A stretch of DNA of 64,000 bases, taken from Candidatus Saccharimonadota bacterium. GTDB taxonomy: Bacteria; Patescibacteriota; Saccharimonadia; Saccharimonadales; OFTM59. Shown here in pieces: positions 4,317-49,948 of the stretch. The notes below the pieces were generated by a model. The model made no database searches and was not told where the DNA came from. It saw only the letters and a program-made list of their open reading frames with translations. A program made the position numbers and the translations under genes. The stretch is taken from assembly GCA_029260855.1 (NCBI GenBank), contig JAJDCK010000011.1:11978-75977 (forward strand). The letters run 5' to 3'. Each line of letters starts with the position of its first letter. The first letter of the stretch is position 1.

Positions 4317-5906
4317 ATGATTTCAAAGCAAAAAGCAGTCGCACTTTGTCGAGTATCAACTTCCAAGCAACGGATATTTGGTAACAGTCTAGATGCACAG
4401 GAAGCACGTATAGTTAAGGCTGCTGAACTGCTGGAGGTACTGCTCCCTGATAACTATATTTGGCGGATGGATATCTCCAGCAAAAAGGGTAAAAACATCA
4501 AGAGAAAAGACTTGAAGGAAATACGCGAGCTTTGCCGAAAAGATAAGAGTATCAAGTATTTTATCGTTGATGAACCAGACCGTTTTATGCGCTCAATTAA
4601 AGAGTTTTATTGGTGGAAAGTTGAATTTGAACAAATTGGGGTCGAACTTCGTTTTGCTCATAAGCCTCTTGCAAGTGATAACGACCAACACCACGTTTTT
4701 GATGAGCTTATAGATGTATATCGCGCTGAGTCGAGTAATCACGAACGCACTACTAAGGCGAATGAAAAGATGCAGTCAAGAATTGACTTAGGCTACTACC
4801 CAGGTTATTGCCATACAGGATATATGAAGTCTGACGTTAAAGGTATCCACGTTCCTAGCGAACCACAGTTTAGTTTGCTACAAGAAGCATATCGAGATGT
4901 TGCATCAGGAAAGAAGAGTTTGCGAGAAGCACTGACTTGGCTAGCAAGTGCTGGCTTTAAGTTAAAGAACGGTAAGAGGCTGGATATGATGCAATTCAAG
5001 CGCATCTTAAAAGAGCCTTATTACTATGGTGCAGTCAAAATGGGTGATTTCCAGCAGAACGAAAAAGGGCTTCATAAAGCTATGATAAATAAGGAAGAAT
5101 TTGAGATAGCTTCAAAGATTGCGAAGGGTCAGAAAGCACGGTTTACAGTTAATCGACATAACCCTGAATTTCCAATGAATGGGTTACTCTGCGAGGAATG
5201 CTTCATCAGTAACAAACGTTCTGACGGAAAGTTTACTGGGTACAAACACCACAATGGCAAAAAGGAAAGTTCACGTAAGTACTACAAGCGATATCGTTGT
5301 AGGAGCTGCGGGAATCCATTTACCCAAGAGGAACTGCACAAAAGAGTGAGTGACTACCTTGCGCCTGTTAGGCTTGCCCCAGAAGTGCGCGAAGAGCTTA
5401 TCCATAGCCTCCGCAAAGCGTGGGCTGAAATAGAGCAGGACAGCATAGCTGAGATTACACGACTTCGTACGCGTCTAACTCACGCTAATGAGCAGAAGAT
5501 GAGACTAGTTATATCACTAGCCGATAATCCTGAAAATAAAGCAGACACACAGGAAGCCATTGTTCTTAAAAAAGAAGAAATTGGCATTATCGAGGATGAG
5601 CTTACTAAAGCTCAGGATATAGAAAGTGACTTTAATGAATTCGTAGAGTTTTCACTCGGCTTCGTAGACAACTTAAAAGCAAATTGGTGGAGTCTCGACC
5701 ACGAAGACAGATTGAGGTGCGAAGAGCTTCTTTTCCCACAGTTTTTAAGGATTGATAAAAACAAAAAAGTTAGCACCCCAGAAATAAGCTACATTTACAG
5801 ATACAAGCCATCAAAAAAGACACCCGTAGGTGCCTTAAATGCTATATCTGGAGGGCCAGGAGGGACTCGAACCCTCGACATTCTGCTTAAGAGGCAGACG
5901 CTCTAA
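4317..5906 (+). CDS. Large serine recombinase (resolvase/invertase catalytic domain + recombinase domain + zinc ribbon + coiled coil)
   Basis: N-terminal AVALCRVSTSKQ carries the catalytic Ser motif. CEEC...CRSCG forms a zinc ribbon, followed by a long coiled-coil region. AGGAG RBS is present. The last ~19 codons are antisense to tRNA-Lys. Confidence 0.85.
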   Translation: MISKQKAVALCRVSTSKQRIFGNSLDAQEARIVKAAELLEVLLPDNYIWRMDISSKKGKNIKRKDLKEIRELCRKDKSIKYFIVDEPDRFMRSIKEFYWWKVEFEQIGVELRFAHKPLASDNDQHHVFDELIDVYRAESSNHERTTKANEKMQSRIDLGYYPGYCHTGYMKSDVKGIHVPSEPQFSLLQEAYRDVASGKKSLREALTWLASAGFKLKNGKRLDMMQFKRILKEPYYYGAVKMGDFQQNEKGLHKAMINKEEFEIASKIAKGQKARFTVNRHNPEFPMNGLLCEECFISNKRSDGKFTGYKHHNGKKESSRKYYKRYRCRSCGNPFTQEELHKRVSDYLAPVRLAPEVREELIHSLRKAWAEIEQDSIAEITRLRTRLTHANEQKMRLVISLADNPENKADTQEAIVLKKEEIGIIEDELTKAQDIESDFNEFVEFSLGFVDNLKANWWSLDHEDRLRCEELLFPQFLRIDKNKKVSTPEISYIYRYKPSKKTPVGALNAISGGPGGTRTLDILLKRQTL

Positions 5907-5925
5907 CCAGCTGAGCTACTGGCCC
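5849..5925 (-). tRNA. tRNA-Lys(CTT), CCA encoded
   Basis: GGGCCAGTAGCTCAGCTGGTTAGAGCGTCTGCCTCTTAAGCAGAATGTCGAGGGTTCGAGTCCCTCCTGGCCCTCCA folds as a manual cloverleaf with anticodon loop CT-CTT-AA. Confidence 0.93.
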
Positions 5926-14795: not shown

Positions 14796-16313
14796 GTGCT
14801 AACCACAAACGAAAAAATTGGCCAGCTTATTTATCAGATACGACAAGACAGACGGCTTACCCAGGCTGAGTTTGCCCGTAAACTTGGCACGAGCCAGTCA
14901 GCTGTAAACCGTATCGAACATGGTAAACAAAACTTAAGCCTGGAAACACTCGGCCGCATCAGTGATGTGTTGAATAAGCCGCTTATTAGCATTGCCGGCC
15001 AATCTACCAACTTTAGGGTTGAAGGCGGCCATGAGCTTAAAGGCACAGTTGAGACAAAAACCGCCAAGAACAGTGCCGTTGCGCTGTTATGTGCAAGCTT
15101 GCTGAATAAGGGTAAAACCAAACTACTCAAAGTCCCTAGGATTGAAGAAGTAAATCGCATTATCGAAGTACTCATAAGTATGGGCGTAAAAGTCACTTGG
15201 TACGGTGGCAATAATCTTGAGATTAAGCCACCTACTAAATTGTCTATGGACAACCTTGACGCAAATTCCGCGCGCAGGACAAGAAGCGTAATTATGTTAG
15301 CTGGACCATTAATGCACGAATTCAAAGAATTTAAGATTCCTTATGCTGGCGGCTGCAAGCTCGGTAAGCGTTCTGTTCAAGCGCACTTGTATGGACTAGA
15401 AGAGTTTGGCGTAACGACAGATGTACGAGTAGGCCACTACCACATGTCTGTAAAGCAAAAAACTCCTGAAAAAGTTGTAATGTATGAAATGGGCGAAACG
15501 CCTATTGAGAATATGTTAATGGTCGCCGCACGTCAGACAAATACCGTTTCTATTCATCAATCCTCATCTAATTACAATGTGCAAGATTTGTGTCATTTCT
15601 TACTAAAACTTGGCGTCAAAATAACAGGTATCGGGAGCTCGCGGCTAAATATTACGGGCTTAGCAGATATAAATAAAACGGTTACATATACCGTCGGCGA
15701 GGATCCAGTAGATAGCATGTTTTTTATTGCCGCTGCTGTCGTAACAAACTCAGAGCTCACTATCACCCGCTGCCCGATTGAGTTCTTAGAGTTGGAGCTA
15801 CTGAAGCTAGAGAAAATGGGCTTGAAATTCGCTGTTAGCAAAGAATACTTAAGCGATAACAACCACACTAAGTTAGCCGATATAATAATCCATAAACACG
15901 ACACTTTAGTGGCGCCCAACGATAAAATTCATCCACTACCTTTCCCTGGCCTTTTGCCTGATAACCTGCCGTTCTTTGTTGTGATCGCGGCGGTATGTAA
16001 GGGTCGTACACTCATACATGACTGGATGTATGAAAACCGAGCGATTTACTTTACTGAGCTAAGCCGGCTGGGTGCTAATGTTGAGCTTATTGATGCCCAC
16101 CGGGTATATGTAAGCGGGCCAGCAAACTTTACCAGCGCAGACGTAACTTGCCCACCAGCCCTAAGACCAGCTGCCATATTATTAATCGGAATGCTCCAAG
16201 CAACTGGCACATCCGTACTTAGAAATGTCTACTCTATCAATCGCGGCTACGAAGACATTGCCGAACGGCTTAATAAGCTCGGGGCGCAGATCAACGTCGT
16301 TCACGAAATTTAG
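14796..16313 (+). CDS. murA: UDP-N-acetylglucosamine 1-carboxyvinyltransferase with an N-terminal XRE-type HTH domain
   Basis: Residues 1-65 form an HTH (RLTQAEFARKLGTSQSAVNRIEHGKQN). The rest is MurA/EPSP-synthase fold, including GGCKLGKRSV with the catalytic Cys. GTG start, with TATAAT at 14782-14787. Confidence 0.85.
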   Translation: MLTTNEKIGQLIYQIRQDRRLTQAEFARKLGTSQSAVNRIEHGKQNLSLETLGRISDVLNKPLISIAGQSTNFRVEGGHELKGTVETKTAKNSAVALLCASLLNKGKTKLLKVPRIEEVNRIIEVLISMGVKVTWYGGNNLEIKPPTKLSMDNLDANSARRTRSVIMLAGPLMHEFKEFKIPYAGGCKLGKRSVQAHLYGLEEFGVTTDVRVGHYHMSVKQKTPEKVVMYEMGETPIENMLMVAARQTNTVSIHQSSSNYNVQDLCHFLLKLGVKITGIGSSRLNITGLADINKTVTYTVGEDPVDSMFFIAAAVVTNSELTITRCPIEFLELELLKLEKMGLKFAVSKEYLSDNNHTKLADIIIHKHDTLVAPNDKIHPLPFPGLLPDNLPFFVVIAAVCKGRTLIHDWMYENRAIYFTELSRLGANVELIDAHRVYVSGPANFTSADVTCPPALRPAAILLIGMLQATGTSVLRNVYSINRGYEDIAERLNKLGAQINVVHEI

Positions 16314-18025: not shown

Positions 18026-18102
18026 TGGTCGGGGTGAAAGGATTCGAACCTTCGACCTCGCGGTCCCAAACCGCGCGCGCTAGCCAACTGCGCCACACCC
18101 CG
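18026..18102 (-). tRNA. tRNA-Pro(TGG), CCA encoded
   Basis: The reverse complement CGGGGTGTGGCGCAGTTGGCTAGCGCGCGCGGTTTGGGACCGCGAGGTCGAAGGTTCGAATCCTTTCACCCCGACCA has anticodon stem CGCGG/CCGCG and loop TT-TGG-GA. Confidence 0.92.
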
Positions 18103-18160: not shown

Positions 18161-19219
18161 CTACGGAATCCAGCGCTGGTTAAGGCCGCCGTGGCAATCC
18201 CAAACAATAATTTGTGTTCCGTTTGCTGTTCCTGGGCCAGCGGCGTCAAGGCAACGACCACTAGCGTGTGAAGCAAGAAGCGTGCCGGTACTGTCATCGC
18301 TGCCACCCCATTTCTGGTTTGCCCCGCCGTGGCAATCATAAATCTCAACAGGTGACCTGTTGTGTCCGCCAAATGCCGCGTCTACATCTAAACACTTACC
18401 GCTATGAACTGAGCGCAGCATCCCGCCACTTGCTACCCACTGCTGGTTTGCCCCGCCGTGGCAATCCCATAAGATAACCTGGGTGCCGTTTACGGTGCCC
18501 CAGCCTGAGACGTCAAGGCAACGATTGCCTGCACCAGCCGTTCTTATACGAAACCCCTGGACCTGTGCTGAAGCACTGCCGCTTCCCGGCTGCCCTGCTG
18601 CGCCTGAACTGCTCGTACCCGGGCTGCTGGTTCCCTGCGAACCACTAGTTCCGGTTCCATTACTGCCACTTGAACCGCTGCAACCACTACCTACGCAACT
18701 GCCGCTTCCACCCGCACCGCCAGCTCCGCCGTTTGACGCTTGCTGACCTGCTTGGCCGTTGTTGCCGCCACCGGTTCCGCCCTGAGTGGCACTTTCGTTG
18801 CTAGTCGAACTTTGTTGCTCAGAAGTTTTCAGTGCTTTTAATGCAACTTTGTGACGCGCTTTCATGGCGTCTTCTTCGGCTTCGTTATTGTCTTTCAATA
18901 CCTTGAGTTCATCTTCACAAATGTCTTCCTGACGGCCTGACATGGCGTCACACTGATCATCCTTGGTGTCTTCGGCTACTTCATGCCTGTCCTTTAGCGC
19001 CCTTAGTTCAGCCTTTTGTGTGTCCTTAAGGTTTTTGACAGCTGGGCTCACAGCAAACGAGGGTACAATCAATAAAGTGGCCACAATAGCAAACGCAACG
19101 ATGAACAACCATTTTCTTTGCTGACGGCTAGTAGCAACCTTTTTGGAGCGAGACGACCCAGTACGGTTGTTTGGTTTAGTATTTCTTTTTGCAGTAGTTT
19201 TCTTAGCGGTTTTTGCCAT
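18161..19219 (-). CDS. Membrane-anchored/secreted protein: charged coiled region + Gly/Ser linker + C-terminal ricin B-type (QxW)3 lectin domain
   Basis: Basic N-terminus plus TM (WLFIVAFAIVATLLIV). There are three repeats of CLD...G..V...DCHGG(A/L)NQ(Q/K/R)W. Confidence 0.8.
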   Translation of the reverse strand: MAKTAKKTTAKRNTKPNNRTGSSRSKKVATSRQQRKWLFIVAFAIVATLLIVPSFAVSPAVKNLKDTQKAELRALKDRHEVAEDTKDDQCDAMSGRQEDICEDELKVLKDNNEAEEDAMKARHKVALKALKTSEQQSSTSNESATQGGTGGGNNGQAGQQASNGGAGGAGGSGSCVGSGCSGSSGSNGTGTSGSQGTSSPGTSSSGAAGQPGSGSASAQVQGFRIRTAGAGNRCLDVSGWGTVNGTQVILWDCHGGANQQWVASGGMLRSVHSGKCLDVDAAFGGHNRSPVEIYDCHGGANQKWGGSDDSTGTLLASHASGRCLDAAGPGTANGTQIIVWDCHGGLNQRWIP

Positions 19220-19292
19220 TTAAAAGCCTTTTTATATTACTTATTAGATATTCTTATATAAGTATATAGATGCTTATGCTTAAAGTGTCAAG

Positions 19293-20437
19293 CTAAAGAA
19301 GGCCACTAGCTAACTCCTCGGAGCCACTGCTAAAGTTAGCTATAGTAACATCGCTGTCTAATGGCAGCTGAACAGGAGTTTGTGATTGTGCATGTTTAAG
19401 GTCGGCTGCTAGGTGTTTTTTCGTATACTCACGGTCATTCACGGCGGCCCTATTAGCAACAGTGCTCTGAGCTAACAATACGTTAGTAATTTTACCGTTT
19501 TCGTCGAGTATATAAGCCGTAGCACCGCTGGACCCTGCAAATGGCACGTACGATCTGACACCTTTAACCCACACTCTTTCTTCGCCGTACCCTTTCACGT
19601 CTGTTCCCGGCCCTAAATACACGCCGTGATAAATATTCAATTGTTGATTAGAGTCTACTCTCACTACTAACGCTTGCGACCCAGGCATGGGAGCTTCGCT
19701 ACCTAGTTGGGTTGGCTCAACCTCATCAAGGGCAGGCGATGCGTTCTTAGGCTCTACTAGAAGTAAATCGGCTTTCATGCTGCCTGCGTTTGCGATCATG
19801 GCGCCAGCTTCAGCCACTGGCTGTGTTGGGCTGCCACCCGGCTGGGTAAAGACTATATCCCACTGGGAAGCTTCAGCTAAATTCACTGGCCTTACTGCGA
19901 CATCCGGGCTATCAAACCTATCTAAAAGGCCTGTTGTTTTGCCGGCTTCATCCCTATCAAGGCAGTGGAAGGCGGTGCTGAATACGTTTTGGCTATCACC
20001 CTTTTCGTCGGTAATACGAATGTAGTTGCTAGACAATATGGCGCGTATGCTTCACTTGAGCCTTTTTGCTTCCGCCACAGAACGAAAGTGCTCTGTTTCA
20101 GTTTATCCTCCGGGGTCAGCACTTCTACGCCCTTTTCACGCTGTTCCTTGTTATCTTCTACATGCTTTAGCCCAATATCCGTTAGCGCATCTTCAACAGT
20201 TGTGGTGTAGCCGTTACCTGGGTCAGATAATTCACCAGTATCTATATCACCGCCAGGGTGTGCGGCAGGCTTTTCGCCGCTAAAAGCTTGTACTAAGGGG
20301 TTCATAGAAGCTGCCAATGCAAGCACCAGAGCTATCTGCCCAAGCCGACTCCTTAGGAAACCTGGCTGATGAGGGTTTTGTTGTCTTTCTACTGTTTGTG
20401 GATCGGACATTTGTGTTTCGCCGTCTGTGGCTGTCAT
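19293..20437 (-). pseudogene. Secreted trypsin-like serine protease split into two overlapping frames (19922-20437 signal/N-terminal part; 19293-20051 protease part)
   Basis: The upstream ORF has a signal-like IALVLALAASMNPLVQA. The downstream frame has STAFHCL (His motif) and FAGSSGATAY (Ser motif) but no signal peptide. The two frames overlap at 19922-20051. Confidence 0.5.
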
Positions 20438-20491
20438 GCTAGTATGATAGCATAAGCATGTTGTTATGTCAAATCTGTTATGTGGGTAATT

Positions 20492-22744
20492 TTACCAGGT
20501 GCCCCACTTTTGATTTTTGGCCCCACTGACACAATCCCAGACCTGGAGGTTGGCGCCATTATCTATTTTGTTGTCTTTTACGTCTAAACACCTGCCAGTA
20601 GCAGCCGACCTGATCGTTCCGTCGCTGTTCCACTGCCATCTTTGATGAGAGCCACCGTTACAGTCGTAAATTTGTACATCAGTACCGTTCTTGGTCTTGC
20701 CTCCTTCAACCTCCAAACATAATCCGCTGGCGGCAAGTCGTATAGTTCCATCGGTAGCAAGCCCCCACTTCTGGTTGGTGCCACCGTGACAGTCCCAGAT
20801 CTGTGTGTCTTTACCTGCCTTGATGCCGTCCGCATCCATACATCGGCCGCTGGCGTGACTCCTGATTACATACTGTGCAACTGCGGGGGGTTTATCTGTA
20901 GACGAGGCTGCGCTTGTGGTTGTAGTTTTTCCGTCAGGAGTAGTTGTGGTACAAGTGCCGTTCTTGCAAGACGTCTTAGTAGAGCCACTATAGCTACTGC
21001 CTTGGGATTGACCACCTATAGAGACTCCGCCCTGTGAACCCTTGGAGCCTTGCTGGCCACTTGTGCCTGAGGTGCCCGATGAGCCCTGCGCGCCTGATGC
21101 TCCTGGTGAACCAGGGGAACCTTGGGTAGCAGTACCTGGATTACTTGTTCCTGGTTGGCCTGGGGTGCTTGTTCCTGATTGACCAGGCTTACAGCCCCCG
21201 GTACAAGCGCCTGAGCCACCGGCTCCTCCATCACCACCCACCGTGTTGTTGCCAGTAGCTGTACCACCAGCACCACCTTGACCACCGGTCCCTTGCCCGA
21301 TGCTAGCCCCTGCTTGACCAGGTGTTCCCGGTTGAGGAGGTTTTACAATAATTGCATTTGGATCATAATCACCCCCTATCCCGCCTGGGCGAGGTACGAC
21401 TTTTGGTCCTAGATCAGCAACCGCGCCTGTGTCTAGAGGGTCGACATTGAGGAACATTTTATCGTGCATAACAACCCACATATCACGGGTAACAACCCCG
21501 CTACAGCCGGAATAGGTTGCTGCGGTACATTTTGCTGTACTAAACAAATCTTTATTTTCAAATTTAAACTTCTTTACAGCTAATTCTGTACCTAGGCCAA
21601 AAATTCCGTCAATGCGTGTTTCGCGGTCAGGTCCAAGCTCAGGGCCGTAACCAAGATCTTGCAGATGGGCTTGTATGTGTTCAACGCATAAACCTTTTTC
21701 ACCCCTCTTCCACTCTTCTCTGTGACACTCCACTTGGGTTACTATCGTAGGAGGCGGACCACCTGTGACTGGCGTACTTGAGCCACCACCCCCACAACTA
21801 CGATAATGGGGTGCTGGGTCTTGTAGTATATTGCCCTTTCTCATTTCAAAATGTAAGTGAGAACCCGTGACAGCGCCACTAGAATCAGTGTAGCCTAGAA
21901 GTTGACCGGCTGTCACGTTAGGATTAGCGAGAACTTTTGGATTTATCCGCAGTAAGTGTGCGTATTTAAAGTTATAGCTGCTACCGTTTAAGTCTATCTG
22001 GAGACCGTATCCGCTCGTATCGCTCACCCTGCCTGATATAGAAACTCTACCGCTCTGCGCAGCATATATGCCGTCGCCATCTCCAGCAGCTATATCAATC
22101 CCGTGGTGCGCTTTTTTACTACCAGTTATGGGATGTGGCCTAGGATCGGTGTGAAAAACCCTGGTAATTCCACGAGACTTGCTGATTGGACAGTGTATGG
22201 ATGCGTTGACGCTGGCGATTACTAAAGGCGCTTCGTCACCGAACGACGGTCCATTTTTGAGACTGCCCCCAGGATATGCCCAGCAAGCTACACTCGCTGG
22301 ATCCGCTATCCAATGACTCTTCCCTGATCCATTGTTGAAAATTTCTGCAAATCTCGCATCTTGAACATCCCTTGGGGCACTTTTAGCGGTAGGATATCCA
22401 CGATAGTTACCCCATGTACCATTTATAAACTGGTAAGCGCCACTCGCGGTTGAGAATGAGCTTTGAGCTGTATAATCTTCACTGCCGTAGGTACCATCAC
22501 CGCTTTCGCAAGCCCGAATTCGAGGTGCCATAAAGCCGGTGTTATTGTTCGCGGCGTGGCTAGTATCACTAGAGGCATAGCTTGTTATAAGCATAACCGT
22601 GCCGACAACTGCAAAGCCTGTCACAAAAAGAATCATAACCTGTTTTTTGTCTCGTAATTTAAAAACTCTTTTCATGAGACCCCTGGAAGCCGGTGGCCTT
22701 ACGTATGATTTCTTGGCAGAAGTTTTTTTACCCATTTGATTCAT
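20492..22744 (-). CDS. Multidomain cell-wall hydrolase/lectin: TM anchor, Rpf-like transglycosylase domain, M23 peptidase, PG_binding_1 domain, Gly-rich linker, ricin B lectin
   Basis: ACESGDG...GAYQF..TW (transglycosylase-like); HHGID...GSHLHFE (M23 HxxxD/HxH); LQDLGYGP...DGIFGLGTELAVKKF (PG binding); three C..D....(W/Y)DC.(G/S)G..Q(K/R)W lectin repeats at the C-terminus. Confidence 0.85.
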   Translation of the reverse strand: MNQMGKKTSAKKSYVRPPASRGLMKRVFKLRDKKQVMILFVTGFAVVGTVMLITSYASSDTSHAANNNTGFMAPRIRACESGDGTYGSEDYTAQSSFSTASGAYQFINGTWGNYRGYPTAKSAPRDVQDARFAEIFNNGSGKSHWIADPASVACWAYPGGSLKNGPSFGDEAPLVIASVNASIHCPISKSRGITRVFHTDPRPHPITGSKKAHHGIDIAAGDGDGIYAAQSGRVSISGRVSDTSGYGLQIDLNGSSYNFKYAHLLRINPKVLANPNVTAGQLLGYTDSSGAVTGSHLHFEMRKGNILQDPAPHYRSCGGGGSSTPVTGGPPPTIVTQVECHREEWKRGEKGLCVEHIQAHLQDLGYGPELGPDRETRIDGIFGLGTELAVKKFKFENKDLFSTAKCTAATYSGCSGVVTRDMWVVMHDKMFLNVDPLDTGAVADLGPKVVPRPGGIGGDYDPNAIIVKPPQPGTPGQAGASIGQGTGGQGGAGGTATGNNTVGGDGGAGGSGACTGGCKPGQSGTSTPGQPGTSNPGTATQGSPGSPGASGAQGSSGTSGTSGQQGSKGSQGGVSIGGQSQGSSYSGSTKTSCKNGTCTTTTPDGKTTTTSAASSTDKPPAVAQYVIRSHASGRCMDADGIKAGKDTQIWDCHGGTNQKWGLATDGTIRLAASGLCLEVEGGKTKNGTDVQIYDCNGGSHQRWQWNSDGTIRSAATGRCLDVKDNKIDNGANLQVWDCVSGAKNQKWGTW

Positions 22745-22788
22745 ATCAATCTCGGTTTACGTTTATCATGTTCTTTAAGTATCCTGTT

Positions 22789-23430
22789 TTACTCATCATG
22801 ACCATGGGCCTCTTCTGGCACCTCTGGATACCCAAACTCTTCATCGCAACAATAGTCTATAGCATCAGGATCTTCAATTACTTGATCTAACTGGAATCTG
22901 TTTATCTCTTCATTAGTTGGGTTCTTGGGAACAGGTAAACATGGAGCCCCTTTGATGGTGCCTGCTGGTTTCCAGCATTCCATAGTACTTTTCCATCGAG
23001 TACTACCGGTGGCGGGATCGTTCCAGTCGGTGGTAAACTTATCGTTTTGCACAACTGCGGGAGCTAGTCGAGCTTCACTAAAGCCACCAAAATTATTCCA
23101 TTCCTTTATATTATAATTAAAAGCCCCGCTGCGTGAACCTTCTCCCTTTGCCTCATAATCCCCTTGGCCCCATATACCCTGACCGGTTTCACACGCGATA
23201 ACTCTAACAATCCAGTAGTCTGCATTGCCGAAATAACGTGGCTTAGCGGCTGCGAACGAAGAAGTGACTAAATAGGTACCGATAAGAGCAACTCCTATCA
23301 CAAAAATTAACTTAACTCTTTGCTTACCGTTTCTATTCATTCCGCGGAACCAGTTTTTGATAAAGCCTCGTTGATTATTGCTCCGGCTAGTCGCTCTTGT
23401 GTTGCTCCGCTTCAGTGTTTTCTTTTTCAT
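22789..23430 (-). CDS. Membrane-anchored protein with divergent Rpf-like transglycosylase domain
   Basis: Basic N-terminus plus TM; IACETGQG...SGAFNYNIKEW. Confidence 0.6.
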   Translation of the reverse strand: MKKKTLKRSNTRATSRSNNQRGFIKNWFRGMNRNGKQRVKLIFVIGVALIGTYLVTSSFAAAKPRYFGNADYWIVRVIACETGQGIWGQGDYEAKGEGSRSGAFNYNIKEWNNFGGFSEARLAPAVVQNDKFTTDWNDPATGSTRWKSTMECWKPAGTIKGAPCLPVPKNPTNEEINRFQLDQVIEDPDAIDYCCDEEFGYPEVPEEAHGHDE

Positions 23431-23441
23431 AATTTTTAGGC

Positions 23442-24035
23442 TTACTCTGCTTCCTGTTCATAGGCGCAGGAGCTACCTAGACCTAGTTCACTCGCGCTAG
23501 GTGCGGGAGTCTGGGCAACAGGAGTTTTGTCGTTGCTAGGTGCCGGCGATTGCGCAGGAGCTATTGATTGATTTTGGGGGGTAGTCGGTTTTTCTGATTG
23601 ATTGGCCTGATCGGGCGCGTCAGATTCTTCCGCAGCAGCAGACTGTGTGTTGACATCACCGAACAGTGATGAGTCAGGTAGGGTCAGTTTGACCTCTTCT
23701 GGAGGAGCAGGCAAGTTGACGGGTTGTATCCATTCTGGGTTGTCTTTTTTTCTACTAACTATGAAGTTGAGACGGCTAAACGTATCGTTTACTCTTAGCC
23801 CAACGCGCTCGCGGAGGCTGTCGCCTCGTGAATCAAGTGTTTTTCGGTCTAAATTTTCTCCGTAATTAACTGGCGCGAATGCAGTCACGACTAGATAAAT
23901 ACCAATCAACCCTAAGGCAAACACCAGAACTGAAGCAAGCTGTGATTTACGTGAATGCCGTAGGCGTAGTATGAACTTTTCAGATACACTGTTTTGTTGC
24001 TTGGCCATTCTTTTCCTGGTAGTTTTCTTTTTCAT
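23442..24035 (-). CDS. Membrane-anchored protein with Pro/Ala/Gln/Ser-rich tail
   Basis: Basic N-terminus plus TM (LASVLVFALGLIGIYLVVTAFA), then a low-complexity C-terminal half. Confidence 0.6.
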   Translation of the reverse strand: MKKKTTRKRMAKQQNSVSEKFILRLRHSRKSQLASVLVFALGLIGIYLVVTAFAPVNYGENLDRKTLDSRGDSLRERVGLRVNDTFSRLNFIVSRKKDNPEWIQPVNLPAPPEEVKLTLPDSSLFGDVNTQSAAAEESDAPDQANQSEKPTTPQNQSIAPAQSPAPSNDKTPVAQTPAPSASELGLGSSCAYEQEAE

Positions 24036-24135
24036 ACGTACAAACTGTCCCTGTGGTAGTTTGTTATTTTTAACGAGCCTGTGTTCAGTTGTACGCGCTT
24101 ATGTTTTATATGTCAAGGTTGGAAGAAGTGAGGTG

Positions 24136-24591
24136 CTAGCGACTTATAGAACCGCTCGGGGCACTAGGTGCGCTTGGAGAAGTCGACGACCCTGACTGCC
24201 CTGGAACACTTGGAGAGCCGGATGTACCCGGGGTGCCTGGTGCGCTTGAGCCGGGTGCGCCGCTACCAGGAGCACCCGAAGAGCCGGTACCTGGACTACC
24301 AGAGCTACCCCCGCAGCCACTGCCGGTACAACTGCTGCTACCACCCGCGCCACCCGCACCTCCGTTAGCCCCAGGCTGACCAGAACTGCCATTATTAGAG
24401 TTCGGGGGACACAAGCTAGCAGCCAATACGCTTACTACAAAGTACAAGCCAATTAGTGCAAAAGTGGCTACAAAAAGTGCTTTTCTGGGTGAATTTTTAA
24501 GGTTTGCGATAAAACTCATCGTACCTTTTCCTGGTCTTTTAGAGGTTTTACTACGATTAGGTGCTGCTTTTCTTATAGTTTTTTTAGTCAT
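24136..24591 (-). CDS. Membrane-anchored Gly/Ser/Pro-rich protein
   Basis: Basic N-terminus plus TM; NGGAGGAGGSSSCTGSGCGGSSGS motif is shared with the 18161 and 20492 genes. Confidence 0.6.
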   Translation of the reverse strand: MTKKTIRKAAPNRSKTSKRPGKGTMSFIANLKNSPRKALFVATFALIGLYFVVSVLAASLCPPNSNNGSSGQPGANGGAGGAGGSSSCTGSGCGGSSGSPGTGSSGAPGSGAPGSSAPGTPGTSGSPSVPGQSGSSTSPSAPSAPSGSISR

Positions 24592-24592
24592 T

Positions 24593-25366
24593 TTATAGCC
24601 CCAACCAGCCAGATACCCTAGTGTTAAATGTCTGAACTACGGCCAGCACCCCTCCGGTCTTGGGGCAAAAGATACTGCTATCGCCAGTACCACTTGTCGT
24701 GCTGGAGCTACCACCGGTACCAGCAGAGTCACTGTCGCTTGATCCTTGATTGCTTGAGCCAGAGTTGCTGCTACCAGAGCTGCCGCTAACGCCCGTGCCG
24801 AATTGTCCGGACTGTCCTGTGCCCGTGCCAAGCCCGCCTACACCACCCTGACCGCCACCTGTTCCACTTCCCGCTTGACCGGCTGGTCCGCTTGAACCGG
24901 CGCTATCACTAGAGCCCTGCCCGGTTTGGCCGCTTGCTGTCGTACCAGCTGAGCCGCTTGATCCTTGATTGCTTGAGCCAGGGTTGCTGCTACCAGCGCT
25001 GCCGCTAGCGCCCGTGCCGTCGCTGCCCACCGCACCGCTGCCAGTCCCTATGCCATCCGCACCATCCTGCCCGTTCGCGTCCGTTTGTGATGCACCAGTG
25101 TTTTGGTTAATACCAGCTAAGCTGTTGAAGAAACCACCTACGCGTTCTTGAAACGTAAGGTTTTGGTCTGCGTCACCCCCTATCAATGTATTGCCGCGAC
25201 TTGCTGAACGGTAAGCTGACACTGAAGAAGCTATTAGGTAGAATCCAACCACAGCTACTGTAAGCATGATCAATGGAGCCTTGCTACTGGAGCCTCGCCA
25301 GTTGTCTAGCAAACTTTTTGAGCTAGTGGGGTTTTTTGTTGTCTTGCGTATGTTTGTGTTTTTCAT
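24593..25366 (-). CDS. Membrane-anchored Gly/Ser-rich protein with internal duplication
   Basis: Basic N-terminus plus TM. A 65-nt near-identical repeat lies at 24736-24800 and 24955-25019 (period 219 nt). Confidence 0.6.
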   Translation of the reverse strand: MKNTNIRKTTKNPTSSKSLLDNWRGSSSKAPLIMLTVAVVGFYLIASSVSAYRSASRGNTLIGGDADQNLTFQERVGGFFNSLAGINQNTGASQTDANGQDGADGIGTGSGAVGSDGTGASGSAGSSNPGSSNQGSSGSAGTTASGQTGQGSSDSAGSSGPAGQAGSGTGGGQGGVGGLGTGTGQSGQFGTGVSGSSGSSNSGSSNQGSSDSDSAGTGGSSSTTSGTGDSSIFCPKTGGVLAVVQTFNTRVSGWLGL

Positions 25367-25388
25367 TTATCCCAATACCGCCCTGAGG

Positions 25389-25994
25389 TTATTGGCACGA
25401 ATTACCGTTACTGCCGGAGGTGCCACTTGCGCCATTACTACCGCCAGCACCCCCCGAGGCACCCGCGCTACTACTACTGTTACTACCGCTGCCGCTTGCA
25501 CCCGAGCTGCCGGTACCGCTTGAGCCGTTGCTGCCGGAGCTACTACCAGACCCTGGAGCACCATCATGTCCTTGGTTGTTTATGTGTGTAGCGACAGTGC
25601 TAACTCCACACACATTACTTTGCGCTTTGTTTTGTCTCTTAAATGAGTCTTTCAGATTGTCATAGACGTCATCATTGCGGTTTTTCAGGTCTTTCAACTG
25701 GTCCTTACAGGTCCTCTCGGCTGCCCGGTTTTCAATTTGTTTACATTGAGCTTTCTTAGCGTCTTCGGTATTCTCATGCTGTTGCTTGAGGATTGTAAGC
25801 TGGCTTTTTTGGGCGTTAGTTAGAGAAGCTGCTTCCGAGGTTACGGCCAAAATGCTGCCGAGCGCTGCAAAAAGCAGCACCAAAACTAATATGCGTTGTT
25901 TGCTGGATAAAGCCCGGAGTTTGCCCATTATCCCCTGGGCGGGTTTACTAGCTGCTCTAGTTTTTCGGGCGGTTGAAACTTTTGATTTTGGCAT
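25389..25994 (-). CDS. Membrane-anchored protein: charged Cys-containing helical region + Gly/Ser tail; paralogue of the N-terminal half of 18161-19219
   Basis: LTILKQQHENTEDAKKAQCKQIENRAAERTCKDQLKDLKNRND compares with LRALKDRHEVAEDTKDDQCDAMSGRQEDICEDELKVLKDNNE. Confidence 0.6.
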   Translation of the reverse strand: MPKSKVSTARKTRAASKPAQGIMGKLRALSSKQRILVLVLLFAALGSILAVTSEAASLTNAQKSQLTILKQQHENTEDAKKAQCKQIENRAAERTCKDQLKDLKNRNDDVYDNLKDSFKRQNKAQSNVCGVSTVATHINNQGHDGAPGSGSSSGSNGSSGTGSSGASGSGSNSSSSAGASGGAGGSNGASGTSGSNGNSCQ

Positions 25995-26113
25995 TATATT
26001 TCCCTTATTTTTGTTTTTGTTAACTTACCGTATAAACATAAGCTTATTCCGAATATACCTACTGTGTCAACTCAATAGCTCGCATTTTATAACCGGACTA
26101 GGTAGGTTGCTTG

Positions 26114-26536
26114 CTAAATTGATTTACAGGTTTTAATGCCATTTTTAGTTGTGCAGACAGTCCCTGTAGCAGGAGCGCCGGGAGCACTTGGTGCACTAGG
26201 AGCGCTTGATTTCCCTGGTGCGCCGGGAGCACTGGAACTGCCGTCCGCACCACGACTACCAGGCGCAGTTTTGACATCTTCACCTTGGCCAGGCGCACCT
26301 GGCTGGCCGACGGCATCTTTGCCTGGTGTACCGTTACAATTGTTGTTATTATTGCTGCTGGCAACGCAGGTGTTGTCCGTACCGGTGGCTCCGTCTGCTC
26401 CCTTACTATTCAGTCCTTCGGGTGGAGGGCATAGTGCAAGCGCGCCAATCACTAGTAGCGTACCGGCCGCCGCAAAGGTCAGGATGAATAATGCTTTCTT
26501 GGGTGAGCGCTTTATCCAGACCCCTAAACGCTGCAT
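26114..26536 (-). CDS. Membrane-anchored Gly/Pro/Ser/Ala-rich Cys-containing protein
   Basis: TM (ALFILTFAAAGTLLVIGALALC), low-complexity body, and a C-terminal CTTKNGIKTC motif. The start overlaps the ymdB stop by 13 nt. Confidence 0.55.
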   Translation of the reverse strand: MQRLGVWIKRSPKKALFILTFAAAGTLLVIGALALCPPPEGLNSKGADGATGTDNTCVASSNNNNNCNGTPGKDAVGQPGAPGQGEDVKTAPGSRGADGSSSAPGAPGKSSAPSAPSAPGAPATGTVCTTKNGIKTCKSI

Positions 26537-27339
26537 AAGGCCGCTGGAATAATCTGATTTATGTGCTGGATTGAGGTTGCGCTGTGAGAGCTATTTGATG
26601 TGATTAGGGTGGCGTTGAACTGCAGAGGGCCGTCGGTTTCTAGCTGGTTACGGCTGGGGTGACCATCATACCAGCGTTTTGTAGTTACAGATAATTTAAC
26701 ACCAAGGCTGGAGTGCAACGTTCCGCACATACCGACATCTGTTATGTGCGCTGTACCTTTTGGCAAAATCATAGCGTCTGCGGTTGGGACATGCCAATGA
26801 TCTCCAATGACTGCAGTGACTCGTCCGTCCAAGTAATAGCCGATCATGCGTTTTTCGCTACTGAAGTCCCCGTGAAAATTTACAATCGTTGCGTCTCGCT
26901 GGACATCTTCATTCTCTAGCAGAATTTGATCAACGATTTTCAACGGATTATTCATAGGGTCTTCTGCTTTTTTACCAACAATACTGCCTCTTAAGCTAAT
27001 TACCAGTACGCTACCCGTAGCGGTTTCAATGTATTTCCACCCCAACCCTGGTGTGCCTTCAGGGTAATTAGCCGGCCGAATTACAGGCTGGCTAGGGTCG
27101 TCCAGATAGTCATAAATCTCTGGTAGGTGCATAGACCAGTCCCCCCCTGTGCAAAAATCCACGCCCAGCCTCAACAATCTGTCAAGGTCCGTCCTTGACA
27201 GACCCTTGCCGTTCGTGGTGTTTTCGGCTTGGGCAATCACTAGATCTGGCTTGTACTGTTTTCTCACTTCGGGCAATACGCAACTTACAGCCTCAATACC
27301 GGGCTCTCCCATTATGTCCCCTACGTAAAGAATGTTCAT
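26524..27339 (-). CDS. ymdB: YmdB-family metallophosphoesterase (2',3'-cyclic-nucleotide phosphodiesterase)
   Basis: MNILYVGDIMGEPG...VIAQAENTTNGKGL...NFHGDFSSEK...GDHWHVPTAD. It has the conserved position downstream of rny. Confidence 0.85.
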   Translation of the reverse strand: MNILYVGDIMGEPGIEAVSCVLPEVRKQYKPDLVIAQAENTTNGKGLSRTDLDRLLRLGVDFCTGGDWSMHLPEIYDYLDDPSQPVIRPANYPEGTPGLGWKYIETATGSVLVISLRGSIVGKKAEDPMNNPLKIVDQILLENEDVQRDATIVNFHGDFSSEKRMIGYYLDGRVTAVIGDHWHVPTADAMILPKGTAHITDVGMCGTLHSSLGVKLSVTTKRWYDGHPSRNQLETDGPLQFNATLITSNSSHSATSIQHINQIIPAALCSV

Positions 27340-29210: not shown

Positions 29211-30182
29211 CTAGTTATTCGCTGGCGTCGATGAGTTCTTCTGGATGGCGTAGACCACCAAGCGCTTGTTGTAGGAGTTGGATTTGGTATCATAGGCGCC
29301 CGTCTCCGTAACCAGATTCAGTCCTGGTACGCCAGGCACGGCTGTTGCCAGCATAGGCTCCAGAGGATCAACGTCCCTAAAGGCCTGGAGTTTTGCCACA
29401 TAATATATGTACGTTTTGCCATCACCAGTCTCCAACCTAATCTCATCGCCTGGCTTAAGCTCTGCTAAATCGTGGAAGATCCCGGGCTTACTCGGGCCAG
29501 ACGCGTGGCCAGTCAAAACAACTGCGCCCACCTCCCCCGGCTTGACACTACCTTCATACCAGCCTGCGTCGTATATATTTGATGGCAGCCTGATTTCTGT
29601 TTCGGTGCCGACACCTACTCTGCGAACTCGGGCTGAAAGGCCCATATCATCAATATGAAATATGCGAGGCAAATTACCAGCGACCTGGTAGCTTTGTATG
29701 TTGGTAGGGCGACGTTCAGTAATTTCATTACCGTTATCAATCATCGGCTCTATGCTCGCCCTGCTGTAGGACCGGTTTGCCTCCGCATGATTACCTGAAC
29801 GTAAACTACTAAACCCAGCGACAGAGATAAACAGTATTAAAGCCAAACAAATTACTGGTAAGTAGGCCTTTACTGGAACAAGCTTCGGAGATACCGGACC
29901 CAATAAGTGGCCGAGTTTAATGCCGAAGATATTATCGGGACCATTGGCTTCAGTGGGTAGCCTAGAAATACCAGACGACAGCCTAGCTGATCCTCGCACC
30001 AACGGTTCTAAGGGCTCGCCCTGCTTTGTCGCTAGATGTTTTGCAGAGCGCTCGCTTATACCTTCAATACTGCGCGCTTGTATGCGTGGAACCGGCCGCC
30101 GATAGTAAGGTAGCTGCTTACCGCCAGGCAGATGCTGTGTGTTATTGAATAACCTATTGGTGATTGGCCGTTTTGGCGCCAT
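29211..30182 (-). CDS. Sortase-fold protein with the catalytic Cys replaced by Glu
   Basis: PGEVGAVVLTGHAS...F..L..LKPGDEI...YIYYV...LNLVTETGAYD...NKRLVVYA is collinear with sortase His / TLxTC / Arg motifs. The TLxTC position reads LVTET (GAG codon). Confidence 0.65.
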   Translation of the reverse strand: MAPKRPITNRLFNNTQHLPGGKQLPYYRRPVPRIQARSIEGISERSAKHLATKQGEPLEPLVRGSARLSSGISRLPTEANGPDNIFGIKLGHLLGPVSPKLVPVKAYLPVICLALILFISVAGFSSLRSGNHAEANRSYSRASIEPMIDNGNEITERRPTNIQSYQVAGNLPRIFHIDDMGLSARVRRVGVGTETEIRLPSNIYDAGWYEGSVKPGEVGAVVLTGHASGPSKPGIFHDLAELKPGDEIRLETGDGKTYIYYVAKLQAFRDVDPLEPMLATAVPGVPGLNLVTETGAYDTKSNSYNKRLVVYAIQKNSSTPANN

Positions 30183-37015: not shown

Positions 37016-37519
37016 ATGTTCAAGGCACTTAAAAAAGCACAAGAAGGCTTCACGATTATCGAACTTTTGATCGTAATCGCGATTATTGCCGTTTTAGCAG
37101 GACTCGTACTTAACAACTTCCAAGGCGCACAAGCCAAGGCTCGTGACTCACAGCGCCTCACTGACATCAACAACGTACACAGTAAACTAGAAGAGTTTTA
37201 CAACGAGAAGGGTTTCTACCCTGATACTTTTGATGCAGATGATTTCCCTGGTATTGATGAAAACAGCCTGCTTGACCCGGACGGTAATCTCATAGTCATC
37301 AGCTCACCAGTGACTGACGAAGCTGCCGCTGAAGCTGCAGCAGCACCGGGCAGTATAAATGAATACGTTTACATACCGTTCCCCGCCAGCTGTACAACTG
37401 CAGCCGAAAGCTGTGAGGGTTACGTCCTAAAGACATACATTGAAAAGCCAACAGGCTCTACAACAAACCCATATATCAAGAAGGGCTTGAACAATCCTAC
37501 ACCTACTCCAACTCCATAG
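37016..37519 (+). CDS. pilA: Major type IV pilin (prepilin)
   Basis: Leader MFKALKKAQEG / FTIIELLIVIAIIAVLAG gives G-1, F+1 and E+5. It has its own terminator. Confidence 0.9.
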   Translation: MFKALKKAQEGFTIIELLIVIAIIAVLAGLVLNNFQGAQAKARDSQRLTDINNVHSKLEEFYNEKGFYPDTFDADDFPGIDENSLLDPDGNLIVISSPVTDEAAAEAAAAPGSINEYVYIPFPASCTTAAESCEGYVLKTYIEKPTGSTTNPYIKKGLNNPTPTPTP

Positions 37520-40837: not shown

Positions 40838-41248
40838 ATGCTTGTGTTTCGTAGAAAACCCGTAAAAAGCCACCAAGGCTTTACCATCATTGAGTTGCTA
40901 GTAGTGATTGCTATATTTGCTATTGTGATGCCTACGCTTGCAGCCGGGATAAATAATTTAACAGTGATAAATAACCGCTCTCGCGATTTAGCACTTGCTA
41001 ATTTGATTGCCGAAAGTAAAGCTGAGCAGCTACGTAATGCTGGCTATAACAGCCTTTCACCGGGCATTGTAAGTTTTAGCGATGACCTACCCGCTGAACT
41101 AGCTCCGCCTAAAACTGGCACATATACAGTCACAAACCCAGCTGCTGGCCTGGCTGAAATATCAATTGAGATTAGCTACAAGGATTATAGCCAAATAAAA
41201 ACCGTCTCATACAAGACTGTGGTCAGCGAGCTGGGAGTAGGCCAGTGA
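40838..41248 (+). CDS. Minor pilin (prepilin-type N-terminus)
   Basis: KSHQG / FTIIELLVVIAIFAIV. Confidence 0.8.
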   Translation: MLVFRRKPVKSHQGFTIIELLVVIAIFAIVMPTLAAGINNLTVINNRSRDLALANLIAESKAEQLRNAGYNSLSPGIVSFSDDLPAELAPPKTGTYTVTNPAAGLAEISIEISYKDYSQIKTVSYKTVVSELGVGQ

Positions 41249-45025: not shown

Positions 45026-45646
45026 TTGTATATGCCTGGCAAGAACATTATTAAACACTATGGTGCTGAGCAGTACTATCATATTTATTCTAGAGGGGTT
45101 GCTAAGCAGACGATCTTTCTGGACGAAGATGATTATTTCTACTTCTTGAGTGCCTTGAAGCGATATCTTTCGCATAAACCCGCAAAACATCCCGGGCACG
45201 GCAATTATCCTCATTACGGAGAACGGTTGACTCTTTTGGCATACTGCCTAATGCCCAGCCATGTTCATCTGCTCGTATACCAAAAAGACCAACAAGCAAT
45301 GGTCGAATTCATGCGTAGTGTGATGACTAGCTATAGTATGTATTTCAATCGAAAATATAAACGTGTTGGCCCGGTATTCCAGAGCCGTTATAAAGCAAGC
45401 CGTATTACCCAAGACAGTTACCTTGAGCATATATCCCGTTACATTCATCTTAATCCAAATAGTTGGGACCATTATCCTTATTCAAGTCTTAAATATTATC
45501 TAGGTGACGCATGGGCTGAATGGATTAGACCAGACAGCATATTGGAGATATTCCCCTCACCTCAGCAATATCTAGAATTTGTGCAAGATTACGAAGGCCA
45601 TAAGCAAATGCTGGATGAGATACACTGGGAACTGGCCGATCAATAA
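45026..45646 (+). CDS. Y1 (HUH) transposase, IS200-like / REP-associated tyrosine transposase family
   Basis: LMPSHVHLLV (HUH motif), VGPVFQSRYKA (catalytic Tyr region), and SRYIHLNP. Confidence 0.8.
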   Translation: MYMPGKNIIKHYGAEQYYHIYSRGVAKQTIFLDEDDYFYFLSALKRYLSHKPAKHPGHGNYPHYGERLTLLAYCLMPSHVHLLVYQKDQQAMVEFMRSVMTSYSMYFNRKYKRVGPVFQSRYKASRITQDSYLEHISRYIHLNPNSWDHYPYSSLKYYLGDAWAEWIRPDSILEIFPSPQQYLEFVQDYEGHKQMLDEIHWELADQ

Positions 45647-45653
45647 ATAACTA

Positions 45654-46440
45654 GGCTCTAGTACAGCAAAACTTCTAGTTTAGACTAGAAGAGACATGAA
45701 ATTACAGATACCATACGGCAAGATTAGCGGCAACAAAGTCGGAAAAATCCTGAAACACTTCATAGTCCATGTCGAGGCGGCCAAAGCCGCCGAGCTGCTA
45801 GGATTACATAGGCATATTATTGAGGATTACTACACGCTGTTCCGCACCCTCATCTACGCTAACCAGCTGGGTGACTTCCATCAATTATCCGGCGTCATCG
45901 AGCTGGATGAAAGCTACTTTGGAGCTAGGCGCATCCGTGGGCACCACGTGAAGCTGAAGCGTGGCAGAGGCACCCGCAAGCAACCCGTCTTCGGCATCTA
46001 TGAACGTGGCGGCAGAGTCTACACTGAGGTCATCCAGAACTGCTCTGGCGCTACGCTCCAGGCTATCATTGAGCACGCGTGGTAGCCCTTAACAGCGAGT
46101 TGAACAGTGACGGCTGGCGTGGCTATGACGGCCTGGTGGATGTGGGTTACGGACAAACACTACCGGGTCAACCATGCCAAGGACGAGTTCAGCGACTTCA
46201 AAGGGCATCACGTCAACGGCATCGAAGCCTTCTGGAGCTTTACTAAACGCCGTTTAGCTATGTTCAACGGCGTACGTAAGACCCACTTCGAGATATTCCT
46301 CAAAGAATGTGAATGGCGTTACAATAGAGGCCATGAAGAACTGGAGCGAGAGCTTAAACAGTTGCTTGGCCAACATCTCAAAGTCGTATCTAAAGCACGA
46401 GGAAGGAGTAGGTCTAGGTAGGTTTTGCTAGACTAGAGCC
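45654..46440 (+). mobile_element. IS1595-family insertion sequence with terminal inverted repeats and 7-bp direct flanking repeat
   Basis: IRL GGCTCTAGTACAGCAAAAC (45654-45672) matches IRR GTTTTGCTAGACTAGAGCC (46422-46440) at 17/19 positions. ATAACTA flanks both ends (45647-45653 and 46441-46447). Confidence 0.75.
45696..46421 (+). pseudogene. IS1595-family (ISXO2-like DDE) transposase, disrupted
   Basis: The conserved ...VIELDESYFG...VFGIYERGG..., then SDGWRGYDGLVDVGY (a different frame, 46109 onward), then KHYRVNHAKDEF..NGIEAFWS. TAG at 46083 and at least two frame changes are needed to join the blocks. Confidence 0.7.
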
Positions 46441-49743: not shown

Positions 49744-49948
49744 GCTAGGAGCTATGTAGAACTCGAATCCACAACACGCCAAAAGGGTGTCGGGGGTGAA
49801 GATTGCCGCCGGCAATCTGCAAGGAAACCTTCCGATGAAAACTTGTTTTCTATCGCGAAGTTTCGGGGTCGCTGAAAGTGACCGAGTCCCACTGTGCCAA
49901 GTGTTCCTGTTTCTAGGGATTCCATTTAACCCCTGTTATCATAGAGCT

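Follow-up and report, generated by a model that had tools for sequence, protein, structure and literature searches.

Nine genes on the minus strand fill positions 18161-26536 of a 64,000-nt stretch of Candidatus Saccharimonadota DNA (contig JAJDCK010000011.1, positions 11,978 to 75,977; this whole stretch is called the window here). Eight of them, g1 and g3 to g9, encode proteins with a common N-terminal leader in which a long basic segment precedes a hydrophobic helix ending in S-x-A. We conclude that this shared N-terminus is probably an extended Sec-type secretory signal peptide specific to the Saccharibacteria/Saccharimonadales lineage, and that signal peptidase I (SPI) probably cuts after the S-x-A element. 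As in Sec/SPI signal peptides of monoderm bacteria, the leader lies at the extreme N-terminus and carries a basic n-region of net positive charge, an uninterrupted hydrophobic h-region and a polar c-region whose residues at -3 and -1 are small and uncharged, and it precedes extracellular cargo. The short n-region of such peptides, a few to about 10 residues, is replaced here by one of 14-53 residues across 41 leaders, and because of this length we count the leader as a variant of the Sec/SPI class. Unlike Sec/SPI signal peptides, it also has position-specific h-region residues that are common to unrelated cargo.

The eight ATG codons lie at 19219, 22744, 23430, 24035, 24591, 25366, 25994 and 26536 on the minus strand. 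Start codons and leader-coding segments are found where the original prediction had placed them, and the N-termini and helices quoted there are correct. In seven of the eight genes the n-region comprises 29-40 residues with 7-14 Lys/Arg and 0-1 Asp/Glu (36 residues, 13 Lys/Arg and no Asp/Glu in g1; 34 residues and 12 Lys/Arg in g3). The segment is thus far longer than an ordinary Sec n-region, as had been claimed, and also more basic; the description as 30-45 basic residues does not hold as worded, since this is the scale of the length of the segment and not of its number of basic residues. The claim of eight full leaders holds for seven. The exception is g9, which has a 14-residue n-region with 5 Lys/Arg and begins directly at the membrane-proximal motif. 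No remnant of the missing distal basic half is encoded upstream of g9 in any frame, the g9 ortholog P0007 has a complete 36-residue n-region, and g9 itself still scores 36-48 bits against hidden Markov models (HMMs) of the leader.

For a more general description we used a larger set of 41 leaders with script-assigned sites and an alignment of 38 leaders (A4), numbered with the conserved Ala as -1. The n-region has a median length of 33 residues with 12 Lys/Arg and 0.34 Asp/Glu, and the h-region and c-region together have a median of 21 uncharged residues (38-41 leaders). The n-region is bipartite. Its distal segment of about 15-25 residues starts with M-x-K-K-T, is rich in Lys, Arg, Thr, Ser and Asn and is nearly devoid of acidic or hydrophobic residues. 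A loose proximal motif follows, G-h-h-x-x-W/L/F-+, and then a second basic patch, often S-P/R-K-K; hydrophobic residues account for 13% of the distal part versus 29% of the proximal 16 residues. The hydrophobic core of about 16 residues is followed by a polar c-region of 5-6 residues that ends in S-x-A. In the eight window leaders the best 17-residue Kyte-Doolittle window reaches 2.3-3.0. Conserved positions in the h-region are F-18 (27 of 41 leaders), F-14 (25), A-13 (32), G-10 (28) and Y-8 (20), with further consensus for Leu/Ile at -19, Val/Ile at -17 and Leu at -7. Position -3 is occupied by Ser in 22 leaders, Val in 9, Ala in 4, Thr in 3 and Gly in 2, and Ala is found at -1 in 36 of the 38 aligned leaders with Ser in the remaining two. 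From +1 on the sequence is variable. An AlphaFold2 (AF2) model predicts residues 1-21 as disordered, a short helix of low confidence at 22-31 and a helix at 35-62. In the subfamily of g6 and g9, a Cys is conserved two residues past the predicted site (A-A-S-L-C-P-P or A-L-A-L-C-P-P), which is lipobox-like but, with Leu at -1, not canonical; the members of the subfamily are the window genes at 24136-24591 and 26114-26536, the orthologs L081 1367-1819 and L082 2896-3420, and P0007.

The likeness of these N-termini could be nothing special, either because it was inherited through tandem duplication, because it reduces to generic Lys/Arg richness combined with a generic transmembrane (TM) segment, or because the true start lies downstream. 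The eight genes are indeed adjacent and have several modules in common, in some leaders a Met occurs internally, close to the proximal motif, and internal starts were picked by the gene callers in several orthologs. We nevertheless regard this explanation as very unlikely. When residues were shuffled within segments and pairwise alignment scores were summed, the real leaders beat 300 of 300 shuffles, with z=5.0 for the n-region and z=23 for the h+c region. The conservation is therefore positional and exceeds what composition provides, as the original prediction had expected if the similarity was more than Lys/Arg richness. No DNA-level repeats are present among the leader-coding segments, so that recent duplication or gene conversion was rejected, and in other genomes the leader heads unrelated cargo. 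In orthologs with a caller-chosen internal Met, the reading frame continues open upstream of that codon, and this stretch likewise codes for the basic segment. Substitutions in the n-regions of orthologs number 134, 119 and 198 at codon positions 1, 2 and 3 over 400 codons (chi-square about 23, 2 degrees of freedom), and this third-position excess indicates that the basic segment is evolving as a coding sequence that is less constrained than the downstream part. Its identity among orthologs is 27-85%, similar to or below that of the mature parts, and length and charge are maintained throughout. In addition, g1 and g7 contain no internal Met ahead of the helix, and the internal Met of the other leaders is not conserved among orthologs.

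The distribution of the leader was examined in 80 RNase Y loci from metagenome-assembled genomes of Saccharimonadales (Candidatus Saccharibacteria, TM7), whose RNase Y shares 75-82% identity with the window's. Together with the window these loci gave 4,669 open reading frames (ORFs), and the related DNA amounts to about 1.4 Mb by our own estimate. Within the window the leader HMM matches only the eight genes; elsewhere it matches three N-termini (L003, L011, L070) and weakly a fourth (L045). Searching 1.84 billion representative proteins with a profile gave 20 matches at E<=0.001, of which 19 are N-terminal. The remaining one, an internal TM segment, is probably a false positive, and it is the only exception to the observation that all profile matches begin at protein residue 1-21. 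Both matches that carry an organism name are assigned to Candidatus Saccharibacteria/Saccharimonadales, and Saccharibacteria are the source of the three genes with a leader that were found in named genome loci. A degenerate DNA pattern for [LIVMF]F[LIVMF]..FA..G.Y[LIVMF].....A, run over metagenome contigs, gave at least 120 matches; none of those listed is leader-like, and we take them all as chance.

Outside the window the leader heads proteins with GH26, right-handed beta-helix, F5/8 type C (discoidin), CBM60, DUF5648, fn3/Big_7 (Ig) and PA14/CARDB domains, as well as PF06737 transglycosylase-like and PG_binding_1 domains. All cargo domains are of extracellular type, including the ricin, M23 and PG_binding domains of the window, and glycan-binding and glycan-cutting functions are enriched. 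No case of the leader on a cytoplasmic-type protein was found among the profile matches, which answers the original concern that an HMM might pick up cytoplasmic proteins. The occurrence on unrelated cargo in other Saccharibacteria means that the leader is not confined to the paralog set of the window, so that its earlier designation as family-specific has to be given up. An HMM of the h+c region alone, searched against the same 4,669 ORFs, matches only proteins with a long basic n-region, g9 excepted. No further TM protein is found by it, so that the special helix goes together with the long basic n-region in a single unit. Leader carriers are a minority class, 3-4 in the 80 related loci; among proteins with a single N-terminal TM segment in these loci, the n-region measures 10 residues or less in 152 of about 233, even when the longest possible ORF is used.

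No Pfam or NCBIfam model covers the leader, and no description of it was found in the literature on signal peptides of Saccharibacteria, Patescibacteria or the candidate phyla radiation (CPR), which is not proof of absence. A parallel in layout is offered by the long signals of autotransporters and two-partner secretion proteins, in which an extension of about 25 residues precedes a normal signal peptide in the layout N1-H1-N2-H2-C (PMC2805444). The leader resembles them in its total length of about 55-65 residues, in the roughly 25 residues that extend its N-terminus and in marking certain secreted proteins as a minority class. By analogy, its layout can be read as a charged N1, a hydrophobic/aromatic H1, a basic N2, H2 and C, so that a charged part and a small hydrophobic/aromatic part stand ahead of a normal-looking signal peptide. 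In these terms g9 would be a natural truncation starting at H1/N2, showing that the C-terminal half of the leader resembles a complete ordinary signal peptide. The differences from autotransporter signals are clear: the leaders have no Pfam match to ESPR, the cargo contains no beta-barrel domains, the extension is far more basic, and Saccharibacteria are classed as monoderm and have no outer membrane. The YSIRK-G/S signal of Firmicutes is similar in having a motif at the n/h boundary and a conserved Gly/Ser in the h-region, in marking a secreted or surface subset and in its possible role in localisation. It was rejected, with the YSIRK motif present in 0 of 38 leaders, no NCBIfam match at E<=1 and a cargo that, unlike that of YSIRK-G/S proteins, is without LPXTG. 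The KxYKxGKxW leaders of serine-rich glycoproteins exported by accessory Sec share the long basic n-region, a glycine in the h-region and, for several cargoes, Ser/Gly-rich low complexity. In contrast to these leaders, no motif and no NCBIfam match is found here, secA2 and secY2 are absent from the window and the related loci, and the cargo includes ordinary enzymes; this class was likewise discarded. Two further signal classes were rejected from the 38 leaders. The lipobox [LVI][ASTVI][GAS]C of lipoproteins (SPII) occurs in none of them, g6 and g9 having A-S-L-C and L-A-L-C with Leu at -1. The processing motif G|F-T-L-I-E of type IV pilins (class III signals) is also absent from all; genuine pilins with this motif are encoded elsewhere in the window, at 37016-37519 and 40838-41248.

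Among the remaining alternatives, an uncleaved type II signal-anchor is unlikely but deserves discussion, as several observations that favour it weigh at the same time against a cleaved Sec-type signal peptide. Here the helix would remain embedded in the membrane, its polybasic tail facing the cytoplasm, and Gly/Ser/Pro-rich linkers would serve as stalks displaying hydrolase and lectin domains. The uncharged stretch of about 21 residues is long enough to span the bilayer. In many cargoes a long Gly/Ser/Thr/Pro-rich spacer separates the leader from the globular domain, and neither LPXTG nor a C-terminal anchor is present that could retain them otherwise. In the g5 subfamily Pro is found at +1 of the putative site (A-F-A|P, S-L-A|P). 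Pro at +1 blocks signal peptidase I, and at least the g5 member may therefore stay anchored or be cut elsewhere. TM7x and Parcubacteria encode many proteins with TM helices and few recognisable signal peptides (PMC4508563), which also fits an anchor. Against an anchor speaks the S-x-A at the exoplasmic helix end: the small residues at -3 and -1 are conserved and then give way to variable sequence, and a plain anchor would have no reason to keep them. Furthermore, the core proper is followed by a polar, Ser/Thr-rich c-region as in cleavable signal peptides of Gram-positive bacteria. The S-x-A element thus points to signal peptidase I cleavage rather than to the anchoring that had been suggested originally. 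Other points that weigh against the Sec-type reading are that cleavage is a prediction from the -3/-1 pattern, that the involvement of the signal recognition particle (SRP) is purely inferred, that the amphipathicity of the proximal motif is marginal in a hydrophobic-moment test (p=0.06) with low AF2 confidence in this part, and that the frequency of the leader is taken from the sample of about 1.4 Mb of related DNA. Residue-specific h-region conservation across unrelated cargo is, in addition, atypical of ordinary Sec signal peptides and hints at a more specific role.

Such a role would be a dedicated sorting signal: beyond Sec entry, the polybasic extension and the conserved h-region residues would be recognised by a specific partner. 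This might be a signal peptidase of a special kind, a factor for localisation, or a secretion site at the septum or at the contact with the host, by analogy with the YSIRK-G/S or KxYKxGKxW leaders of Firmicutes. From the sequence, a sorting role beyond Sec export is possible, as was also raised originally; that the leader is a dedicated sorting signal of this kind appears doubtful. The conservation of F-18, F-14, A-13, G-10 and Y-8 persists across unrelated folds and across species as distant as those of the related loci, the long n-region and the h-motif always occur together, the leader coexists as a minority class with ordinary short signal peptides, and its cargo is enriched in glycan-directed domains. 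Yet no candidate partner gene is linked to leader genes in the contexts examined, and shared descent of a shuffled N-terminal module under the usual constraints on signal peptides could give the same conservation. With similar reservation we consider the leader as an address tag of Saccharibacteria, where a factor that reads the polybasic extension and the F/F-A/G/Y face of the helix would route glycan-cutting and glycan-binding proteins or time their release. If this were true, the destination would be a specific site such as the contact zone with the actinobacterial host, and the leader would define the host-interaction secretome of the epibiont. A twin-arginine (Tat) signal peptide is extremely improbable. 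The long n-region, the Ala at -1, the occasional RR (within 14 residues of the h-region in 8 of 38 leaders) and a basic c-region residue in some relatives (F-R-S-F-A, W-K-S-Y-A) are reminiscent of Tat, but [ST]RRx[FLIVM][LIVM] fits only 1 of 38 leaders and is absent from 37, with mostly KN, RH, KK or SK at this place. The h-region is too hydrophobic compared with the weakly hydrophobic h-regions of Tat signals, no Tat-signal model of NCBIfam or Pfam matches, and much of the cargo is low-complexity and Gly/Ser-rich, with no need for folding in the cytoplasm.

For the extended Sec-type signal peptide, which we favour, the following export route can be envisaged. The hydrophobic core would target the nascent chain to SecYEG, probably via SRP, whose participation is plausible because the core is very hydrophobic. 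Following the positive-inside rule, the n-region with its charge of +10 to +14 would keep the N-terminus on the cytoplasmic side, and it may bind anionic lipid, SRP RNA or SecA. The cargo would then be threaded out, and cleavage by signal peptidase I after S-x-A would free it into the wall or the medium of this single-membrane epibiont. The extension may influence when, how efficiently or to which place the cargo is exported. Exported in this way would be peptidoglycan hydrolases of the Rpf-like and M23 types, ricin lectins, a protease-like protein and Gly/Ser-rich proteins.

The nine genes are bounded by ymdB (26524-27339) and tRNA-Pro (18026-18102). Intergenic gaps measure 1-119 nt, which gives the array an operon-like appearance, and the ATG of g9 overlaps the stop codon of ymdB. 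The genes and their orthologs in related contigs are compiled in the table.

Coordinates of the genes of the array in the window and of their orthologs in related contigs
Gene	Position	Strand	Description
g1	18161..19219	-	352 aa; leader aa 1-58 (nt ~19046-19219), coiled-coil segment, G/S-rich linker, ricin-B lectin domain
gX	19293..20437	-	ninth operon gene, trypsin-like; two overlapping ORFs (19922-20437, 19293-20036), frameshift near 19996
g3	20492..22744	-	750 aa; leader (nt ~22574-22744), Rpf-like domain, peptidase M23, PG_binding_1, G/S/T-rich linker, ricin-B lectin (Pfam)
g4	22789..23430	-	213 aa; leader (nt ~23251-23430), Rpf-like (lytic transglycosylase fold) domain, invariant R..CE motif
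g5	23442..24035	-	197 aa; leader (nt ~23874-24035), conserved uncharacterised domain; site A-F-A|P
g6	24136..24591	-	151 aa; leader (nt ~24421-24591), G/S/P-rich low-complexity protein with GGAGGAGGS..C.G..C motif
g7	24593..25366	-	257 aa; leader (nt ~25214-25366), G/S-rich protein, internal 65-nt direct repeat
g8	25389..25994	-	201 aa; leader (nt ~25830-25994), g1-related coiled-coil segment, G/S-rich tail
g9	26114..26536	-	140 aa; truncated leader (n-region 14 aa, nt ~26435-26536), G/S/P-rich protein
g1 ortholog	L082 8027-9160
g5 orthologs	L081, L082, L083, P0015		leader kept upstream of miscalled starts
g6 orthologs	L081 1367-1819; L082 2896-3420		h/c region 82-91% identical
g7 orthologs	L081 463-1365; L082 1998-2894
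g8 ortholog	L082 1001-1849 / P0010

The designation of the eight genes as paralogous is correct in part. Ricin domains are shared by g1 and g3, with a Pfam Ricin_B_lectin match of 1.4e-27 in g1. The coiled-coil segment is common to g1 and g8, which align with 38% identity (E 6e-11), and the Rpf-like domain is common to g3 and g4, where the N-terminal 166 residues of g3 are 29% identical to g4 (E 8e-19). For g6 and g9 the alignment is confined to the leader and the first few residues beyond it, and g5 and g7 have no paralog within the window. The mature parts contain 1-18 Cys, and neither a further TM segment nor LPXTG is found in them. The mature part of g6 consists of 30% Gly and 30% Ser. The Cys-pair mini-motif of g6 (~24370-24310) recurs in the Gly/Ser-rich linkers of g1 (~18690-18740) and g3 (~21220-21190) and is retained in P0013 and in the g6 orthologs of L081 and L082. 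In g7 the two copies of the direct repeat lie at 24736-24800 and 24955-25019 and are 95% identical. The G+C content of the cluster is 0.50-0.52 compared with 0.44-0.46 on the upstream side, probably because of Gly/Ala/Ser-rich coding.

The ninth gene, gX, is split in the window. The switch of frame was seen by tblastn with the intact orthologs L083 3248-4399 and L082 6915-7883, which are unbroken, 322-383 residues long and weakly trypsin-like; the L083 ortholog gives a Trypsin_2 match of 0.002 that is below the cutoff. The split represents either a pseudogene or an assembly error. The leader of gX is a variant in which the proximal motif GFLRSRLGQ, the h-region and VQAFS are present and the distal part is acidic or neutral. 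A strong promoter-like, near-consensus site (TTGACA-17-TATCAT with TG) at 20472-20444 precedes gX, the seventh gene in the order of transcription.

The tentative assignment of g4 as Rpf-like was made from its fold. We looked for a lysozyme-like fold and a catalytic Glu in a C-E-S/T-G context. The AF2 model of g4 has a pLDDT of 87-94 across residues 70-140. In a Foldseek search against the PDB the top 15 hits are Rpf catalytic domains, with probabilities of 0.63-0.99 (the first 14 at 0.90 or higher), a best TMt of 0.75 and weak E values of 0.06-0.7. R76, C80 and E81 are invariant in the alignment of the g4 family, whose homologs include P0001-P0004. For g4 itself there is no Pfam match, and a sequence search of the PDB with the g4-family profile returned none, so that the fold search is the only indication of Rpf. 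A leader-bearing neighbour in L083 matches PF06737 (transglycosylase-like) with 2.7e-18. The additional, g4-like Rpf-like domain at the N-terminus of g3 is absent from its M23-ricin orthologs L081 3169-4926, L082 4820-6745 and L083 1441-3186, which suggests a fusion or domain gain in the lineage of the window.

The array encodes wall hydrolases of the Rpf-like and M23 types together with a PG-binding domain, ricin lectins, a protease-like protein and small Gly/Ser-rich proteins in which Cys pairs are conserved. Such a content suggests a toolkit, secreted or associated with the wall, that acts on peptidoglycan and glycans, which may belong to the own wall or to that of a host. A gene with a sortase domain lies at 29211-30182 (minus strand), just upstream of rny/ymdB and the cluster. 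Despite this proximity, the lack of LPXTG and of a C-terminal TM segment rules out the cluster proteins as sortase substrates.

Three related contigs, L081, L082 and L083, were found via g4, with g4 orthologs of 66%, 50% and about 46-58% identity. They keep the operon order g8-g7-g6-g5-g4-g3-gX-g1 as far as each contig extends, and every ortholog in them has the leader. L082 is the only one that includes ymdB, and its operon directly follows this gene. The operon is absent from all 80 genomes fetched by RNase Y and retained in these three closer relatives, which identifies it as a lineage-restricted island. The surrounding gene content of the window is typical of Saccharibacteria, with a type IV pilus operon, recA, ruvABC, dnaK/dnaJ/grpE and sortase. 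Contigs of the profile matches P0009, P0018 and P0022 carry the usual genes of a chromosome; on that of P0022 the pilus-ruv-dnaK gene order of the window recurs. In L207 (10001-10726) and L208 (8330-9055) a lone leader-bearing gene (P0022) is found between comEC and the DUF192/rimK genes; the comEC-DUF192 gap of the window instead holds tRNA-Lys, an unrelated ORF of 699 residues (49787-51886) and a small membrane ORF. It would seem that the slots taken by leader genes vary within a backbone that is conserved.

Like other CPR bacteria, Saccharibacteria spend their lives attached to a bacterial host, and surveys report that recognisable signal peptides are unusually scarce in such bacteria (PMC4508563). 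For this group the leader offers a simple sequence handle on part of the secretome. The cargo seen so far consists of glycan- or wall-directed enzymes and lectins, and the Rpf-like and M23 hydrolases could act on the wall of the actinobacterial host. If the extension has a role in targeting, it would correspond, for monoderm CPR bacteria, to the extensions known as YSIRK or ESPR. For annotation, leader proteins may be mistaken for membrane proteins or be called with truncated starts, as seen from the internal Met chosen for several orthologs.

Some further observations concern other parts of the window. A protein of 453 residues without a Pfam match (55868-57229, minus strand) has another long basic n-region, 21 residues with 9 Lys/Arg and 5 His (MRKIHKQKKISHHRRHMHMRR...), and does not match the leader HMM. 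The gene at 14796-16313 (plus strand) fuses an HTH_3 (Cro/C1-type) DNA-binding domain to a full-length enzyme of the MurA/EPSP-synthase fold, an unusual architecture. Between ruvA and ruvC, at 45026-46421 (plus strand), there is an IS200-like (Y1 transposase) ORF and, after it, two short ORFs that carry fragments of ISXO2-like transposase. A large serine recombinase gene at 4317-5906 (plus strand) overlaps with its 3' end tRNA-Lys(CTT) at 5849-5925 (minus strand), and this overlap may mark the edge of an integrated element.

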